Virus record (IMG/VR): IMGVR_UViG_2734482550_000011
Source: a virus
Lineage: Duplodnaviria; Heunggongvirae; Uroviricota; Caudoviricetes
Direction: 5' to 3' (one strand)
DNA length: 8,511 bases
Part shown: piece after piece, positions 1 to 8,511 of the stretch
How the letters are laid out: each line of letters begins with the position of its first letter
Position numbering within the stretch: position 1 is the first letter of the stretch
Translations under genes and position numbers: made by a program
Notes under the pieces: generated by a model
Told to the model about the DNA's origin: nothing
Database searches by the model: none
The model's input: only the letters and a program-made list of their open reading frames with translations

Positions 1-3000
1 CGCCTGCTGGTTCAGATACAGCGTAACGGTGGCTGGGTGACGGAAAAAGACATCACCATTAAGGGCAAAACCACCTCGCAGTATCTGGCCTCGGTGGTGG
101 TGGATAACCTGCCGCCGCGCCCGTTTAATATCCGGATGCGCAGAATGACGCCGGACAGCACCACAGACCAGCTGCAGAACAAAACGCTCTGGTCGTCATA
201 CACCGAAATCATCGATGTGAAACAGTGCTACCCGAACACGGCACTGGTCGGCGTACAGGTGGATTCGGAGCAGTTCGGCAGCCAGCAGGTGAGCCGTAAT
301 TATCATCTTCGCGGGCGCATTCTGCAGGTGCCGTCGAACTATAATCCGCAGACGCGGCAATACAGCGGTATCTGGGACGGAACGTTAAAACCGGCATACA
401 GCAACAACATGGCCTGGTGTCTGTGGGATATGCTGACCCATCCGCGCTATGGCATGGGGAAACGTCTTGGTGCGGCAGATGTGGATAAATGGGCGCTGTA
501 TGTCATCGGCCAGTACTGTGACCAGTCGGTGCCGGACGGCTTTGGCAGCACGGAGCCGCGCATCACCTGTAATGCCTGGCTGACCACACAGCGCAAGGCG
601 TGGGATGTGCTCAGTGATTTCTGCTCGGCGATGCGCTGTATGCCGGTATGGAACGGGCAGACGCTGACGTTCGTGCAGGACCGACAGTCGGATAAGGTGT
701 GGGCCTATAACCGCAGTAATGTGGTGATGCCGGATGATGGCGCGCCGTTCCGCTACAGTTTCAGCGCCCTGAAAGACCGCCATAATGCCGTTGAGGTGAA
801 CTGGATTGACCCGGATAACGGCTGGGAGACGGCGACAGAGCTTGTGGAGGATACGCAGGCCATTGTCCGTTACGGTCGTAACGTCACGAAGATGGATGCC
901 TTTGGCTGTACCAGCCGGGGGCAGGCACACCGCGCCGGGCTGTGGCTGATTAAAACGGAACTGCTGGAGACGCAGACCGTGGATTTCAGCGTGGGTGCTG
1001 AAGGGCTTCGTCATGTACCGGGCGATGTCATTGAAATCTGCGATGATGACTATGCCGGTATCCGCACCGGCGGGCGCGTGCTGGCGGTGAACAGCCAGAC
1101 CCGGACGCTGACGCTCGACCGTGAAATCACGCTGCCATCCTCCGGCACCACGCTGATAAGCCTGGTTGACGGGCAGGGGAATCCGGTCAGCGTGGAGGTC
1201 CAGTCCGTCACCGACGGCGTGAAGGTAAAAGTGAGCCGTGTTCCTGACGGTNNNNNNNNNNNNNNNNNNNNNNNNNNNNNNNNNNNNNNNNNNNNNNNNN
1301 NNNNNNNNNNNNNNNNNNNNNNNNNNNNNNNNNNNNNNNNNNNNNNNNNNNNNNNNNNNNNNNNNNNNNNNNNNNNNNNNNNNNNNNNNNNNNNNNNNNN
1401 NNNNNNNNNNNNNNNNNNNNNNNNNNNNNNNNNNNNNNNNNNNNNNNNNNNNNNNNNNNNNNNNNNNNNNNNNNNNNNNNNNNNNNNNNNNNNNNNNNNN
1501 NNNNNNNNNNNNNNNNNNNNNNNNNNNNNNNNNNNNNNNNNNNNNNNNNNNNNNNNNNNNNCTGGTCAGCACGGCCCGGACGACGGAAACCACTTACCGC
1601 TTCACACAACTGGCGCTGGGGAACTACAGGCTGACAGTCCGGGCAGTAAATGCGTGGGGGCAGCAGGGCGATCCGGCGTCGGTATCGTTCCGGATTGCCG
1701 CACCGGCAGCGCTGTCGCGGATTGAGCTGACGCCGGGCTATTTTCAGATAACCGCCACGCCGCATCTTGCGGTTTATGATCCGACGGTACAGTTTGAGTT
1801 CTGGTTCTCGGAAAAGCGGATTGCGGATATCAGGCAGGTTGAAACCACAGCACGCTATCTTGGCACGGCGCTGTACTGGATAGCCGCCAGTATCAATATC
1901 AAACCGGGCCATGATTATTACTTTTATATCCGCAGTGTGAACACCGTTGGCAAATCGGCATTCGTGGAGGCTGTTGGTCAGCCGAGTGATGATGCATCCG
2001 GTTATCTGGATTTTTTCAAAGGCGAGATAGGGAAAACCCATCTGGCTCAGGAGCTGTGGACGCAGATTGATAACGGTCAGCTTGCGCCTGACCTGGCTGA
2101 AATCAGGACGTCCATTACGGATGTCAGCAATGAAATCACGCAGACCGTCAATAAGAAACTGGAAGACCAGAGTGCGGCAATTCAGCAGATACAGAAGGTT
2201 CAGGTTGATACAAATAATAACCTGAACAGCATGTGGGCTGTGAAGCTGCAGCAGATGCAGGACGGACGCCTTTATATCGCGGGTATTGGTGCCGGTATTG
2301 AGAACACCCCTGACGGCATGCAGAGTCAGGTGCTGCTGGCGGCGGACAGGATTGCGATGGTTAATCCTGCGAATGGCAACACAAAACCGATGTTTGTTGG
2401 TCAGGGCGATCAGATATTCATGAACGACGTGTTCCTGAAACGCCTGACGGCCCCCACCATTACCAGCGGTGGAAATCCATCGGCATTTTCCCTGACTCCG
2501 GACGGAAAGCTGACCGCTAAAAATGCGGATATCAGTGGCAGTGTGAATGCGAACGCCGGGACGCTCAACAATGTCACGGTAAATGAAAACTGTACGATTA
2601 AGGGCATGCTGGAGGCGACTCAGGTCAGAGGTGACTTCGTTAAAGCTGTATCCAAATCATTTCCGAAACAGGCTGGTACGTGGGGTAACACGGAAACACC
2701 AAACGGGACGGTTACAGTCACCATAAGCGATGATCATAACTTTGACCGCCAGATTATTATTCCGCCCATTATTTTTAACGGTATAGCGTATGACGATCCG
2801 GGGAGCGGAAATAACCCAGGAGGCACGCGATACACGGGTTATGGTTTTGAAGTTCGCAAAAACGGCGTATTAATCGCATCCAGAGAAACTAAAGGGGCCA
2901 TTCCCGGTAGTTACAGTGCAGTTATTGATATGCCTAGTGGTGGTGGTAGCGTCACTCTGGAGTTTAAGATTTTCCAGAAAGGCAATCAGGGGGCAGGCAA

Positions 3001-3061
3001 TATCACCGACTGTACGGTGATTGTGACCAAAAAAGCGGCTTCCGGCATCAGTATTCGTTGA
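1..3061 (+). CDS. J: Tail tip host-specificity protein J (central tail fibre), 5'-partial, interrupted by N-run 1252-1561
   Basis: Frame 1 is open from position 1 and reads [33 protein letters not shown]..., which I recognise as closely matching lambda J from about residue 140. After the N-run the same protein continues in frame 2 ([36 protein letters not shown]...) and ends ...[10 protein letters not shown] with TGA at 3059-3061. Track ORFs 37..1725 and 1238..3061 are the two halves. Confidence 0.9.
1252..1561. other. N-run (310 nt), assembly gap or masked sequence inside J
   Basis: Uninterrupted n characters. The J frame changes from frame 1 to frame 2 across it, so the N-run length does not equal the true sequence length modulo 3. 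Confidence 0.95.
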
Positions 3062-3083
3062 AATATTTATAACCCCAATAAAT

Positions 3084-3110
3084 GGCGTCAGGAATGACGC
3101 CTTTTTTATT
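3084..3110 (+). terminator. Rho-independent terminator downstream of J
   Basis: Inverted repeat GGCGTCA (3084-3090), loop GGAA, TGACGCC (3095-3101), followed directly by TTTTTTATT, 23 nt after the J stop. Confidence 0.7.
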
Positions 3111-3131
3111 GCAGAAAAGCGAGAGGTAATT

Positions 3132-3940
3132 ATGCGTAAAGTTTGTGCAGCCATTTTGTCCGCAGCCATTTGCCTGGCCGTATCCGGTGCGCCTGCATGG
3201 GCGTCTGAACATCAGTCCACGCTGAGCGCGGGGTATCTTCATGCCCGGACCAACGTTCCCGGCAGTGATGATCTGAACGGGATTAACGTGAAATACCGTT
3301 ATGAGTTTACGGATACGCTGGGGCTGGTGACGTCATTCAGCTATGCAGGAGACAAGAATCGCCAGCTGACCCGTTACAGCGATACCCGCTGGCATGAAGA
3401 TTCCGTGCGTAACCGCTGGTTCAGCGTGATGGCGGGGCCGTCTGTGCGCGTGAATGAATGGTTCAGCGCGTATGCGATGGCGGGTGTGGCTTACAGCCGT
3501 GTGTCGACTTTTTCCGGGGATTATATCCGCGTAACTGACAATAAGGGGAAAACGCACGATGTGCTGACCGGAAGTGATGACGGTCGCCACAGCAACACGT
3601 CTCTGGCGCACTGACGGTTTCATCGTGGGTGTCGGTTANNNNNNNNNNNNNNNNNNNNNNNNNNNNNNNNNNNNNNNNNNNNNNNNNNNNNNNNNNNNNN
3701 NNNNNNNNNNNNNNNNNNNNNNNNNNNNNNNNNNNNNNNNNNNNNNNNNNNNNNNNNNNNNNNNNNNNNNNNNNNNNNNNNNNNNNNNNNNNNNNNNNNN
3801 NNNNNNNNNNNNNNNNNNNNNNNNNNNNNNNNNNNNNNNNCCCGACCGAATCCGTGGCCATTGATATTGCTTATGAAGGCTCCGGCAGTGGCGACTGGCG
3901 CACTGACGGTTTCATCGTGGGTGTCGGTTATAAGTTCTGA
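3132..3940 (+). CDS. lom: Outer-membrane protein Lom (Ail/Lom/OmpX family, lysogenic-conversion moron); interrupted by N-run, first segment ends at premature TGA 3612-3614
   Basis: ATG at 3132 preceded by GAGAGG (3121-3126). Product MRKVCAAILSAAICLAVSGAPAWASEHQSTLSAGYLHARTNVPGSDDLNGINVKYRYEF... is near-identical to lambda Lom as I recall it, with a signal peptide ending AWA. After the N-run the Lom C-terminus PTESVAIDIAYEGSGSGDWRTDGFIVGVGYKF plus TGA (3842-3940) is read in a different frame. Confidence 0.85.
3603..3930 (+). repeat. Exact 36-bp direct repeat (copies 3603-3638 and 3895-3930) flanking the lom N-run
   Basis: CTGGCGCACTGACGGTTTCATCGTGGGTGTCGGTTA occurs just before the N-run and again at the 3' end of lom. 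The first copy joins lom codon ...SLA directly to lom 3'-terminal sequence and creates an in-frame TGA. Confidence 0.9.
3639..3840. other. N-run (202 nt) inside lom
   Basis: Uninterrupted n characters. Intact lambda lom would need only about 24 nt (WGAGVQFN by my recall) between the flanking visible residues. Confidence 0.95.
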
Positions 3941-3966
3941 TTAGCCAGGTAACACAGTGTTATGAC

Positions 3967-4004: not shown

Positions 4005-6929
4005 ATGGCAGTAAAGATTTCAGGTGTACTGAAAGACGGCACAGGAAAACCGGTACAGAACTGCACAATCCAGCTGAAAGCAAAACGTAACAGCACCACG
4101 GTGGTGGTGAACACGCTGGCCTCAGAAAATCCGGATGAAGCCGGGCGTTACAGCATGGACGTTGAGTACGGTCAGTACAGCGTTATTCTGTTGGTGGAAG
4201 GATTCCCGCCGTCACATGCCGGGACCATCACTGTGTATGAAGATTCCCGACCCGGTACGCTGAATGATTTTCTCGGTGCCATGACGGAGGATGATGCCCG
4301 TCCGGAGGCACTGCGCCGTTTTGAGCTGATGGTGGAAGAGGTGGCGCGTAACGCGTCCGCGGTGGCACAGAACACGGCAGCCGCGAAGAAATCAGCCAGC
4401 GATGCCAGCACATCAGCCCGTGAGGCGGCAACCCATGCGACTGATGCTGCAGATTCAGCACGTGCAGCCAGCACGTCAGCCGGACAGGCCGCTTCGTCGG
4501 CTCAGTCAGCGTCTTCCAGCGCAGGAACGGCATCAACAAAGGCCACTGAAGCCTCAAAAAGTGCTGCCGCTGCAGAGTCCTCAAAAAGCGCGGCGGCTAC
4601 CAGTGCCGGTGCGGCGAAAACGTTAGAAACGAATGCGGCAGCGTCACAACAATCAGCAGCCACTTCTGCATCCACCGCGACCACGAAAGCGTCAGAAGCT
4701 GCCACCTCAGCCCGGGATGCGTCGGCTTCAAAAGAGGCGGCAAAATCATCAGAAACGAACGCATCATCAAGCGCCAGTAGCGCAGCTTCCTCGGCGACGG
4801 CGGCTGCAAATTCTGCGAAGGCGGCCAAAACGTCCGAGACGAACGCCAGGTCTTCTGAAACGGCAGCGGGACAGAGTGCCTCAGCTGCGGCAGGCTCAAA
4901 AACAGCGGCTGCGTCGTCTGCCAGCGCCGCGTCAACAAGTGCCGGGCAGGCCTCAGCCAGTGCCACCGCCGCCGGAAAATCGGCAGAAAGCGCCGCATCA
5001 TCCGCTTCAACAGCCACAACGAAGGCTGGCGAAGCCACTGAGCAGGCCACGGCAGCAGCGAGGTCAGCTTCCGCAGCGAAGACATCCGAAACGAACGCGA
5101 AAGCGTCGGAAACCCGTGCAGAATCCTCAAAAACGGCTGCCGCATCGTCCGCCAGTTCGGCGGCGTCATCGGCATCATCGGCGTCTGCTTCAAAAGATGA
5201 GGCGACCAGACAGGCGTCAGCAGCGAAGGGCAGCGCCACGACGGCATCCACGAAGGCGACAGAGGCTGCTGGTAGTGCGACGGCAGCNNNNNNNNNNNNN
5301 NNNNNNNNNNNNNNNNNNNNNNNNNNNNNNNNNNNNNNNNNNNNNNNNNNNNNNNNNNNNNNNNNNNNNNNNNNNNNNNNNNNNNNNNNNNNNNNNNNNN
5401 NNNNNNNNNNNNNNNNNNNNNNNNNNNNNNNNNNNNNNNNNNNNNNNNNNNNNNNNNNNNNNNNNNNNNNNNNNNNNNNNNNNNNNNNNNNNNNNNNNNN
5501 NNNNNNNNNNNNNNNNNNNNNNNNNNNNNNNNNNNNNAATCCAGCTAAGCAGCGCGACCAACAGCACGTCTGAAACGCTGGCGGCAACGCCAAAGGCAGT
5601 AAAAGCAGCCAATGACAATGCTGAGAAACGTCTGCAGAAAGATCAGAACGGTGCGGATATCCCTGGCAAAGACACCTTTACGAAAAATATTGGTGCCTGC
5701 CGTGCCTTCGGTGGGTCAGTAAGCACAACAACAGGAAACTGGACGACTGCACAGTTTATCGAGTGGCTGGATTCTCAGGGAGCATTTAACCATCCATACT
5801 GGATGTGCAAGGGTTCCTGGTCTTATGGCAATAATAAAATCATTACTGATACTGGCTGCGGTAATATTCATCTCGCCGGAGCTGTCATTGAAGTAATGGG
5901 GATAAAGTCAGCGATGACGATCCGCATTACCACTCCGACCACATCCAGCGGTGGCGGAACAACCAACGCCCAGTTTACCTATATTAATCACGGAACAGAT
6001 TATTCACCTGGCTGGCGAAGGGACTATAACTCCAGAAATAAGCCAACGGCATCAGAGATCGGGGCGCTACCGTCAGGTGGAACAGCAGTATCATCAGTTA
6101 ATCTGGCTTCAAAAGGTCGGGTAGCCGCGCTGACAGACAATACGCAGGGGGCAGCAGGTCTTGAGTTATACGAGGTGTATAACAACGGATATCCAACAGC
6201 GTATGGAAATATCATTCACCTGAAAGGGATGACAGCCGTTGGCGAAGGTGAGTTACTCATCGGCTGGAGTGGTACAAGCGGTGCTCATGCTCCGGCATTT
6301 ATTCGTTCACGACGGGATACGACCGACGCAAACTGGTCGCCGTGGGCGCAGCTTTACACCTCGGCTCATCCTCCTGCAGAGTTTTATCCAGTCGGTGCAC
6401 CAATCCCGTGGCCATCAGATACCGTTCCGTCTGGTTATGCCCTGATGCAGGGGCAGACTTTTGACAAATCTGCTTACCCGAAACTTGCAGCCGCTTATCC
6501 GTCAGGCGTGATCCCTGATATGCGTGGCTGGACGATTAAGGGCAAGCCCGCCAGTGGTCGTGCCGTATTGTCTCAGGAACAGGATGGCATTAAATCGCAC
6601 ACCCACAGCGCCAGCGCATCCAGTACGGATTTGGGGACGAAAACCACATCGTCGTTTGATTACGGCACTAAATCCACGAATAACACCGGGGCGCATACGC
6701 ACAGTCTGAGCGGCTCTACAAGTTCAGCTGGGGCCCACCAACATAGTCAGACTGGGCCCAGAACGAATAGCGGGAGTCAACCTACTGGAATGTTTCCGGC
6801 AGGGAGTACTCAAGTTAGCGGGACTAATCAGGTTGGTATCAGTGGCTCATTAACCAGTGGCACCTCCCAATGGGTAGGTAAATCATCTTCAGAAGGAAAC
6901 CATACACACTCACTGTCCGGCACAGCAGC
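4005..6929 (+). CDS. stf: Side tail fibre protein Stf (long variant); internal N-run 5288-5537; 3' end lies inside N-run 6930-7191
   Basis: ATG at 4005 (the track starts at an upstream in-frame GTG 3999) preceded by GGGG. N-terminus [26 protein letters not shown]... matches lambda Stf as I recall it, followed by Ala/Ser-rich repeats. After the N-run the protein continues in frame 1 from about 5539 ([22 protein letters not shown]...) to the conserved Stf C-terminal region [15 protein letters not shown]...SHTHSASAS...GAHTHSLSG...[11 protein letters not shown], which runs into the next N-run. Confidence 0.85.
4380..5287 (+). repeat. Imperfect tandem coding repeats (Ala/Ser/Thr-rich, recurring K-T/S-SETNA units) within stf
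   Basis: Recurring units such as [35 protein letters not shown] and [19 protein letters not shown], with matching DNA repeats (for example gaaacgaacgc at several positions). The array continues into N-run 5288-5537. Confidence 0.8.
5288..5537. other. N-run (250 nt) inside the stf repeat region
   Basis: Uninterrupted n characters. Stf frame changes from frame 0 to frame 1 across it. Confidence 0.95.
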
Positions 6930-7191
6930 NNNNNNNNNNNNNNNNNNNNNNNNNNNNNNNNNNNNNNNNNNNNNNNNNNNNNNNNNNNNNNNNNNNNNNN
7001 NNNNNNNNNNNNNNNNNNNNNNNNNNNNNNNNNNNNNNNNNNNNNNNNNNNNNNNNNNNNNNNNNNNNNNNNNNNNNNNNNNNNNNNNNNNNNNNNNNNN
7101 NNNNNNNNNNNNNNNNNNNNNNNNNNNNNNNNNNNNNNNNNNNNNNNNNNNNNNNNNNNNNNNNNNNNNNNNNNNNNNNNNNNNNNNNNNN
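6930..7191. other. N-run (262 nt) covering the stf 3' end and tfa 5' end
   Basis: Uninterrupted n characters. By my recall of lambda, about 60 Stf residues and 32 Tfa residues are missing, about 276 nt, which is compatible with the run length. Confidence 0.95.
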
Positions 7192-7679
7192 TTCCGCCTC
7201 ATACAGGTCTGCCTGCAAACAGTACCGATATTGCACCGCCAGATATTCCGGCTGGTTTCGTGGCTGTTTTCAACAGTGATGAGTCATCGTGGCATCTCGT
7301 TGAAGATCATCGGGGTAAAACGGTTTATGACGTGGCTTCCGGCGACGCGTTATTTATTTCTGAACTCGGCTCATTACCGGAAAATGTCACCTGGTTATCC
7401 CCGGAAGGGGAGTTTCAGAAGTGGAACGGCACAGCCTGGGTGAAGGATACGGAAGCAGAAAAACTGTTCCGGATCCGGGAGGCGGAAGAAACAAAAAACA
7501 GCCTGATGCAGGTAGCCAGTGAGCATATAGCGCCGCTTCAGGATGCTGTGGATCTGGAGATCGCAACGGAGAAAGAAACCTTGTTGCTGGAAGCTTGGAA
7601 AAAGTATCGGGTGTTGCTGAACCGTGTTGATACATCAACTGCACCGGATATTGAATGGCCAGTAGCACCTATAGGGTAA
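7192..7679 (+). CDS. tfa: Tail fibre assembly protein Tfa (chaperone), 5'-partial, start hidden in N-run
   Basis: Frame 0 from 7194 reads [59 protein letters not shown]...[21 protein letters not shown] with TAA at 7677-7679, near-identical to lambda Tfa from about residue 33 as I recall it. The track ORF 7260..7679 is its tail, starting at an internal GTG. Confidence 0.85.
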
Positions 7680-7760
7680 ATTCGTAATGATTACCTAAAT
7701 ACGTTATTCTTTTGTTAAAAAAGTGATTTTGCTATAGGTAGGGAGTATGTTCTTGGATTA

Positions 7761-7795
7761 AGAATAAAAAATCGCCATGAAAGAGCTTCATGGCG
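7761..7795 (-). terminator. Rho-independent terminator for a leftward (minus-strand) transcript
   Basis: On the minus strand, stem CGCCATGAA, loop GCTCT, TTCATGGCG (plus coordinates 7773-7795), followed by ATTTTTTATTCTT. A 9-bp GC-rich stem in otherwise AT-rich DNA. On the + strand the hairpin is not followed by a T-run. Confidence 0.55.
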
Positions 7796-7944
7796 AGTAC
7801 ATAAACGTACAAAATGTGATGAAAGTAGAGTGGCGTAAGCCACTATATTAAGATATGACAATAGCGAAGAAAAGTAAATAACATTTTATGGACGTTTAAT
7901 TGTTAATTATAAAAACTAGAGTGCCCGATATTGTTTATCTTGCT

Positions 7945-8046
7945 TTAAAATAATGTACTCAAACCAAATTTTTGAGCTAAAAGCTCAAATAATATAAATG
8001 CAATAATAATGTTTAATAAGACAATTAGCTTGCTTTGTATTTTCAT
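7945..8046 (-). CDS. Hypothetical 33-aa hydrophobic small protein (MKIQSKLIVLLNIIIAFILFELLAQKFGLSTLF)
   Basis: Minus-strand ATG at 8046 to TAA at 7945, below the track's ORF size cutoff. Basic N-terminus followed by about 20 hydrophobic residues (one predicted TM helix or a signal peptide). It lies between a promoter-like motif and the minus-strand terminator. No clear Shine-Dalgarno; could equally be the signal-peptide remnant of a decayed gene. Confidence 0.2.
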   Translation of the reverse strand: MKIQSKLIVLLNIIIAFILFELLAQKFGLSTLF

Positions 8047-8080
8047 TTCGGAATACTGTTAAGTAACTTTGATGACCCTA

Positions 8081-8109
8081 ACAATAGATCGGAATTTTCT
8101 TAGAGTCAA
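8081..8109 (-). promoter_or_regulatory. Candidate sigma70 promoter for the leftward small transcription unit
   Basis: Minus strand TTGACT (plus 8104-8109), 17-nt spacer, TATTGT (plus 8081-8086), about 35 nt upstream of the small-ORF ATG. Such motifs arise easily by chance in AT-rich DNA. Confidence 0.2.
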
Positions 8110-8428
8110 TGGTCACTGTTTTTGCTTGCAAAGCAAATGTTTTGGTGGTTATAAGTCGTCTTAATATAGTCACGCATGCAACTTGTTCCATGCGGAGATT
8201 AAAGATTGGAATATAACGCGAAGATGGAATTAAATTACATTTGCAATAATTAATTTATTATTACTCAATAATTACCGATATTATTATTGTAAATTAATCA
8301 TTAGAATGCAAAAAGAAATGTAACGGCAAAATAAGAGGACGATAGCTGAGAAAAAAGCGTGCTTTCCCAATCTGGGGCAAATCACGTCTGAATGACACCT
8401 GAAAACAGGTGGTAGCCTCAAGAAGGCT

Positions 8429-8511
8429 GGTGATGCTGCCAACTTACTGATTTAGTGTATGATGGTGTTTTTGAGGTGCTCCAGTGGCTTCTGTTTCTAT
8501 CAGCTGTCCCT
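8429..8511 (+). mobile_element. IS1 insertion sequence, left end (partial, continues beyond the window)
   Basis: GGTGATGCTGCCAACTTACTGATTTAGTGTATGATGGTGTTTTTGAGGTGCTCCAGTGGCTTCTGTTTCTATCAGCTGTCCCT matches the IS1 left terminus as I recall it, including the terminal inverted repeat GGTGATGCTGCCAACTTACTGAT. Confidence 0.85.
8484..8511 (+). CDS. insA: IS1 InsA, N-terminal 9 codons (3'-partial)
   Basis: GTG at 8484 followed by GCT TCT GTT TCT ATC AGC TGT CCC, encoding (M)ASVSISCP, the InsA N-terminus as I recall it. Confidence 0.75.

Follow-up and report, generated by a model that had tools for sequence, protein, structure and literature searches.

The J protein of phage lambda, which binds LamB, is represented by solved structures (PDB 8IYK, 8XCG-8XCK), and the names shaft, fibre and receptor domain used here are those of the lambda J structure paper (PMC11101478). 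In that system, four loops of the receptor domain go into LamB; binding makes the receptor domains splay and the fibre twist, the shaft flips over with partial refolding of residues 841-861, and the tail opens (PMC11101478). Lambda J is also sensed by HepS, a defence protein, through residues 902-933, with F924 as the trigger (PMC13043305).

Other members of the family use a different porin. Phage 434, and a lambda hybrid with the 434 J, have OmpC rather than LamB as receptor (PMC3509688; PMC11101478; PMC12502783), and the hybrid lambda h434 imm21 has been sequenced (PMC9119081). A8 and 1A2 are natural J receptor domains that retarget lambda particles to OmpC (Brodel et al., PMC11338833), and a structure of A8 is available (PDB 9WCA/9WCB). 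Lambda residue 964 serves as the fusion point for receptor-domain grafts, and a J swap from this residue on suffices to make OmpC the receptor in place of LamB, as reported for two natural alleles other than that of 434 (PMC11338833). Four J clusters were described among gut lambda-like phages (Mathieu et al. 2020).

Here we describe the 3′ third of J in a lambda-like prophage of Shigella sonnei. The explanation that best accounts for this locus, at a probability of about three in four, is a modular J with a receptor domain of the phage 434 type, for which OmpC is the predicted receptor.

Layout of the window and comparison of J with lambda

The window, meaning the whole stretch of 8,511 nt that was analyzed, carries the distal tail genes J, lom, stf and tfa of a lambda-like prophage, and comparison of its open reading frames with lambda and E. 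coli MB56 gives the gene order J-lom-stf-tfa of the lambda tail cluster (Table 1). J starts upstream of the window, tfa is followed by an AT-rich stretch and then by the end of an IS1, and four runs of N are present (1252-1561, 3639-3840, 5288-5537 and 6930-7191). The translation of 1559-3058 is a 100% match to a 500-residue “phage tail tip protein, partial [Shigella sonnei]” with 158 database members. The window is matched at 99.9% identity by a second S. sonnei draft assembly (GCA_900159355.1, locus L004), which contains tail genes upstream of J. Since the window comes from an S. sonnei draft genome, matches to complete E. coli genomes do not exceed 97.6% identity. At the site equivalent to the hairpin 3′ of J, a rho-independent terminator is annotated in the records of phages mEp460 and 434.

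Table 1. Features of J and its surroundings in the window.
Feature	Position	Strand	Remarks
J, 5′ portion	1..1251	+	lambda J residues 136-552, hub domains; Pfam FNIII-A_GpJ, Phage-tail_3
310-N run inside J	1252..1561	.	most likely a scaffold gap of estimated size
J, end of first Ig/FNIII-like domain and entire second; lambda-like	1562..1999	+	Pfam Ig_J residues 1-48, Ig_J_second residues 52-152; 95% aa identity to lambda
Block 1: alpha-helical shaft (AHS) and top of central straight fibre, long-A type	2000..2401	+	38% aa identity to lambda
Conserved lower part of central straight fibre	2402..2590	+	90-98% nt identity to lambda
Block 2: receptor-binding domain, Ig-like, phage 434 (h434) type	2591..3058	+	Pfam PF12421 Ig_GpJ_C, residues 363-498, E = 1e-25
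J stop codon TGA	3059..3061	+	
Terminator-like hairpin and T-run 3′ of J	3084..3110	+	
lom (Ail/Lom outer-membrane protein), cut to 160 aa	3132..3614	+	77-nt deletion at ~3608; outside the J mosaic
IS1 end	8429-8511		

The gene is of the lambda gpJ type, encoding the tip attachment protein that forms the trimeric central tail fibre. The Pfam families FNIII-A_GpJ, Phage-tail_3, Ig_J, Ig_J_second, Phage_Tail_Tip and Ig_GpJ_C occur in the order found in lambda and all pass curated cut-offs; within the 499-residue C-terminal part, Ig_J and Ig_J_second cover residues 1-152, Phage_Tail_Tip 206-334, and Ig_GpJ_C, which Pfam labels “C-terminal receptor binding domain”, 363-498. These 499 residues match solved lambda gpJ chains (E = 6e-185), and block 2 by itself matches gpJ receptor domains of known structure (9wca, E = 2e-21; 8xcj, E = 1.7e-14). 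When the blocks are mapped to the lambda J structure, block 1 falls on the alpha-helical shaft with the upper fibre, and block 2 on the receptor-binding domain.

In alignment with lambda (J02459), window positions 1-1251 correspond to lambda J residues 136-552 with 404 of 417 residues (97%) and 95.8% of nucleotides identical, and after the N-run nucleotide identity stays at 93-98% from 1562 to ~1985-2000. The N-terminal and central parts of J therefore track lambda J, as a first-pass annotation made from the sequence had stated. Over the four consecutive segments that follow the N-run (1562-1999, 2000-2401, 2402-2590 and 2591-3058), amino acid identity to lambda is 95, 38, 90 and 36%, respectively. 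The diverged block that the annotation had placed at about 2010-2400 corresponds to block 1, where identity drops at ~1985-2010 and is regained at ~2400; windows of 60 nt there give 0-35% and then 58-67% identity, and 84 nt (28 aa) are inserted at 2072-2155, after lambda residue 836. Between the blocks, the flanking scaffold is kept, as had been claimed. This stretch, 2402-2590, includes the equivalent of lambda residue 964. F924 of lambda is also conserved in the window, in “QIFMNDVF”. Compared with lambda J, the domain order is thus the same, and identity is 95-97% through the hub and the Ig-like domains and 90% in the lower part of the fibre, whereas the lambda shaft is 28 residues shorter and the receptor domain is only 36% identical.

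The divergence of block 2 begins at ~2560-2590 and continues to the stop codon, with nucleotide identity of 32-65% and five indels relative to lambda (+2, +6, +1, -1 and -3 at lambda positions 1010, 1047, 1076, 1103 and 1108-1110). Indel-rich sites of J have been reported at 1012, 1048-49, 1077-78 and 1107 (Maddamsetti et al., PMC6646904), and the indels of the window match these four sites. The view that the last ~150 residues differ from lambda, which would have fallen had they aligned as essentially identical, stands: at the 156 residues encoded by 2591-3058, identity is the 36% given above. The terminal motif KKxALGIS, said to be kept, survives only in part when compared with KKQALGISVV of lambda. 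The 3′ end of J is also richer in AT, again as first described. Its GC content is 0.479 over 2590-3061, against 0.576 in the lambda-like parts of J (z = -4.3), and none of 134 windows of 472 nt slid along the upstream part of J is as low as these last 472 nt (minimum 0.487). GC at third codon positions (GC3) falls from ~0.63 upstream to 0.47 at the J end, and the shift is therefore more than an effect of amino acid composition. The last 471 nt of lambda itself have a GC content of 0.548.

Because the sequence is a gapped draft, in which 36 nt preceding the second N-run recur after it, and because some J proteins of S. sonnei and E. coli in the databases have odd internal duplications, the mosaic might be taken for an assembly chimera of several lambdoid prophages. 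This is scarcely credible and was rejected: both blocks lie within one ungapped stretch, 1562-3638, which is 99.95% identical to the second S. sonnei assembly and collinear at 96-98% with complete genomes, e.g., phi458, cdtI and MB56.

A receptor domain of the phage 434 type

The genome of phage 434 was traced via its repressor sequence, and its J was taken from OL657226. The last 175 residues of the window's J are identical to those of 434 J at 165 positions (94.3%), with no gaps, so that loop lengths are the same, and in both the junction with the conserved fibre lies at about lambda residue 970. The two proteins differ in the shaft, which is of the short lambda type in 434 and of the 28-residue-longer long-A type in the window, and by the 10 substitutions in the receptor domain. 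Receptor-domain types other than that of 434 are at most 42% identical to the window's in an alignment of 13 phages. When phage records were ranked by amino acid identity to this domain, 74 had at least 90%, 169 had less than 60%, and none fell between 60 and 90%; the receptor domain therefore comes as discrete types.

A further comparison is possible with the hybrid lambda h434 imm21 (OM418627), in which the switch from lambda to 434 lies inside J at ~aa 700-765. The window's receptor domain is part of the 434-derived segment of this hybrid. Its J differs nearly continuously from lambda J from residue 974 onward, and the window departs from lambda at nt ~2560-2590, equivalent to lambda residues ~968-975; in both, the module boundary lies at the conserved stretch near lambda residues 964-974. 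Judged by its sequence, block 2 is the classical h434 host-range allele. As block 2 is the 434 allele and 434 uses OmpC, OmpC is the predicted receptor of the window's J. The first-pass annotation had read the exchange of the C-terminal domain as predicting a receptor different from that of lambda, and the identity to the J of an OmpC user supports that proposal. The hybrid also has the 434 side-fibre genes; since it carries these together with the 434 J, the hybrid alone cannot separate the contribution of J from that of Stf. The lambda-type LamB-binding domain (lambda J 985-1132; loops L1-L4) is not matched by the window in sequence or in loop lengths.

The window's receptor domain was also compared with other OmpC binders. 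Identity with the engineered OmpC binder A8 was ruled out by alignment to PDB 9wca and by 42% identity to the A8-like WGPS8, and identity with 1A2 by the DNA in the published supplement and 38% identity to the 1A2-like phage 2G7b. A8 and 1A2 share with the window's domain the fold family (as seen in the 9wca match, E = 2e-21), a junction at lambda 964 and the predicted receptor class, but they are other alleles, as these identities to WGPS8 and 2G7b indicate. A literature search for receptors found none for mEp332, mEp460, Ayreon, Tritos/Perceval, phi458, ev207 or the ECOR-derived PhiR phages, and a search for receptor data on cdtI, ev099 and long-tailed Stx phages found none either. A large receptor-screen preprint deals with GpJ of Drexlerviridae and not with lambda-type domains.

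A 434-type domain could nevertheless have a receptor other than OmpC, such as OmpF, LamB or a Shigella-specific porin variant, through substitutions at specificity hot spots. Several of the 10 substitutions relative to 434 lie at the equivalents of lambda 991, 1004-1009, 1017 and 1099-1107, and among 15 distinct 434-type sequences variation clusters at the equivalents of lambda 991, 1000, 1004-1009, 1017, 1044-1047, 1088-1090 and 1099-1107. A few substitutions at such sites alter receptor use by lambda, and four J mutations suffice for the gain of OmpF (PMC6646904). However, the domain is 94% identical to that of 434 and has no indels, and at least three more natural types, only 35-42% identical to the window's, use OmpC (PMC11338833; PMC12502783), so that OmpC looks like the usual target of the family. 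A different receptor is thus improbable, and OmpC remains our prediction.

Shaft types, module exchange and prevalence

A given type of shaft is not tied to a given type of receptor domain; across phages the two assort independently. This was seen in an alignment of the last 500 J residues from 13 phages and prophages, with 434 compared separately. A short shaft is found in lambda, Evi, Fels-1, 4A7, 2G7b and mEp460, and also in 434; the long-A shaft in the window, phi458, E. coli MB56 and Stx2 phage 1717; and the long-B shaft in 1720a-02, JLK-2012, 2851 and WGPS8. Block 1 of the window has 98-100% amino acid identity to Stx2 phage 1717, phi458 and MB56. The alignment contains at least six receptor-domain types, and the 434 type occurs with short (434, Evi, mEp460), long-A (window, phi458, MB56) and long-B (2851) shafts. 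Conversely, Stx2 phage 1717 has a shaft 98% identical to that of the window and a receptor domain only 41% identical. In phi458, cdtI, Ayreon, ev099 and the long-tailed Stx phages, the 3′ 1500 nt of J are collinear with the window at 95-97% identity, and both blocks are shared, the differences being scattered substitutions only. The first-pass annotation had treated both blocks as one receptor-binding C-terminus; this description fits block 2, but block 1 is a separate shaft module that assorts on its own.

The stretch at 2402-2590, with 71-98% amino acid identity across all 13 phages compared, provides the homology at which the two variable modules are joined. The sharp boundaries, the shift in composition and the reassortment of modules show module exchange: both modules were gained by homologous recombination in the conserved sequence on either side and did not arise by slow drift away from lambda. 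Rapid evolution of receptor-binding loops is known (PMC6646904), and the blocks might in principle have diverged in place from a lambda-like ancestor, by point mutation under diversifying selection and with no exchange. This is very improbable given how sharply the blocks are bounded, the 90-98% identical DNA between them, a GC3 shift of ~0.15, the occurrence of these blocks in other combinations in other phages and the lack of 60-90% intermediates. Modular recombination of J and the 434-type domain had already been documented, and the combination of this domain with a common shaft is ordinary.

The prevalence of these modules was determined in 5426 complete E. coli genomes. DNA of the window's receptor domain (434 type) is present in 2113 genomes, and that of the long-A shaft (block 1) in 3609. 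Lambda's own receptor domain was found in only 98, in all of them at ≥99% identity, and the three genomes listed among these belong to laboratory strains. The allele that diverges from lambda is the common one, and the LamB-binding end of lambda is the rare one. To call the J end of the window “diverged from lambda” is correct as to sequence, but the wording is centred on lambda, since the window's allele is ~20 times commoner than lambda's in E. coli.

The long-A shaft, found in about two-thirds of E. coli genomes, is absent from the studied phages lambda and 434. The 28 additional residues may constitute a functional module that, by making longer the clamp which has to flip and refold upon receptor binding, alters the triggering of ejection, or that changes reach through O-antigen or recognition by defence proteins that sense the neighbouring fibre peptide (HepS), an idea we consider doubtful. 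The residues encoded by 2000-3058 were modelled with AlphaFold2, with near-identical homologues as the sole alignment (pLDDT 42, pTM 0.28). Low-confidence helices appear at fragment residues 14-24 and 32-76 (window ~2039-2071 and 2093-2227) and would be weakly compatible with a longer shaft.

State of the prophage and proposed mode of action of J

The prophage from which this J derives may be defective. In lom, a frameshifting deletion of 77 nt at a CTGGCG microhomology leaves 160 residues and is present in both S. sonnei assemblies; this deletion and the IS1 end are real signs of decay. The evidence from the gapped genes is of another kind. The N-run in J has 310 nt where lambda and E. coli MB56 have 342 nt, i.e., it is 32 nt shorter, which puts the 3′ half of J out of frame with the 5′ half in the sequence as it stands; stf is likewise out of frame across its own N-run (250 vs. 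252 nt). The second assembly has 141 N where the window has 310 N in J. N-run lengths that differ in this way between assemblies are therefore gap estimates without frame information, and do not show whether J has the single open reading frame of about 1130-1165 codons expected of a gpJ-type gene. The proposal that the N-runs are length-preserving masks, and J hence frameshifted, is unproven given the 141 N of the second assembly.

These observations bear on whether J is a non-functional remnant in a decaying S. sonnei prophage, a reading that concerns the activity of J and not its identity and is thus compatible with a modular, 434-type J. The out-of-frame halves of J, the lom deletion seen in two independent assemblies, the frame of stf and the IS1 end speak for it. 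On the other side, the N-run lengths are estimates, and neither half of J has a stop codon within its 417 or 499 codons. We regard loss of function as possible, though on balance unlikely. The same evidence qualifies the earlier suggestion of a different host range “for this prophage”: its non-LamB part agrees with the prediction made here, but the suggestion presumes a working phage, for which the J gap, the lom frameshift and the IS1 end leave room for doubt.

If J is produced, its 3′ third would form the distal part of a trimeric central tail fibre built from interchangeable modules with conserved joints. By analogy with the lambda J-LamB complex, the three copies of the receptor domain would put their distal loops into a trimeric porin, which for the 434 allele is OmpC instead of LamB. 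Contact with the porin would put a twist on the fibre above it, and the tail would open to let the DNA out. The variable module on the proximal side (2000-2401) is a version of the alpha-helical shaft with 28 residues more, the shaft being the part that clamps the fibre in its closed state.

The junctions between modules in this J are the ones at which lambda particles have already been given new receptors for DNA delivery. A list of the natural receptor-domain types with the receptor of each would therefore be useful, although the window contributes no new type. For the gene itself, the annotation “lambda-like J” can be replaced by “J with 434-type, probably OmpC-binding, receptor domain”.

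Assembly gaps and the truncated lom gene

A 77-nt deletion in lom, bounded by two CTGGCG motifs (within 3560-3945), leaves a truncated product of 160 aa with the C-terminal end 'TSLAH*'. The 202-N run that follows is flanked by a 36-nt repeat, and the second copy, downstream of the run, is accompanied by the 3′ end of an intact lom. The sister assembly of Shigella sonnei (L004) shares the lom deletion, but without the gap and without the repeat. Positions 3639-3894 of the window therefore appear to be a scaffolding artefact, derived from a second prophage copy.

The N-runs in J and stf are both shorter than the matching stretches of relatives (310 vs 342 nt and 250 vs 252 nt, respectively), and the reading frame therefore changes across the run in both genes. 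A second assembly of S. sonnei has 141 N at the position of the J run.

Features of the window
Feature	Position	Strand	Detail
N-run in J	1252-1561		
36-nt repeat, first copy	3603-3638		before 202-N run
36-nt repeat, second copy	3895-3930		after 202-N run
stf repeat region	4300-5290		GC ~0.60-0.64
N-run in stf	5288-5537		
tfa coding sequence	7260-7679		
Rfam family IS009 (RF02111) match	7441-7639	+	218 bits, full length
AT-rich stretch	7680-8428		GC ~0.30
33-codon ORF	7945-8046	-	MKIQSKLIVLLNIIIAFILFELLAQKFGLSTLF, within AT-rich stretch
IS1 left end	8429-8511		GGTGATGCTGCCAACTTACTGATTTAGTGTATGATGG..., final feature of window

The stf repeats, tfa and the AT-rich stretch

The repeat region of stf, the side tail fibre gene, is long, of low complexity and rich in Ala, Ser and Thr, with a strong AT skew. 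The IS009 match falls within the coding sequence of tfa, and an AT-rich stretch of ~750 nt lies 3′ of this gene. Matches to the stretch occur in 1343 complete genomes of E. coli; in 280 of these they cover at least 80% of its length, and the best reach 99.6% identity; no annotated features lay over it among the E. coli genomes listed. The product of its 33-codon ORF resembles a small hydrophobic membrane peptide. In phage phi458, the sequence flanking the IS1 insA gene matches the adjoining IS1 end with 100% identity.

Internal duplication and the F924 position in J proteins

In three database J proteins, P0001 and P0002 from S. sonnei and P0003 from E. coli, the shaft and upper fibre are duplicated internally and in frame, with a short motif in common at the junction (…MFVGQ|PSDDASGY…). 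The first copy in P0001 is a different J allele, and the second has the same sequence as the window. These duplications could reflect true illegitimate recombination or misassembly between two prophages.

HepS, a prophage-encoded abortive-infection nuclease, is triggered in lambda by F924 of J (PMC13043305). The equivalent residue is kept in the J protein of the window, in QIFMNDVF (2390-2440), and 7 positions of the surrounding 32-residue trigger peptide differ between window and lambda. Each of the other 13 aligned J proteins from phages likewise has phenylalanine at the lambda 924 position.
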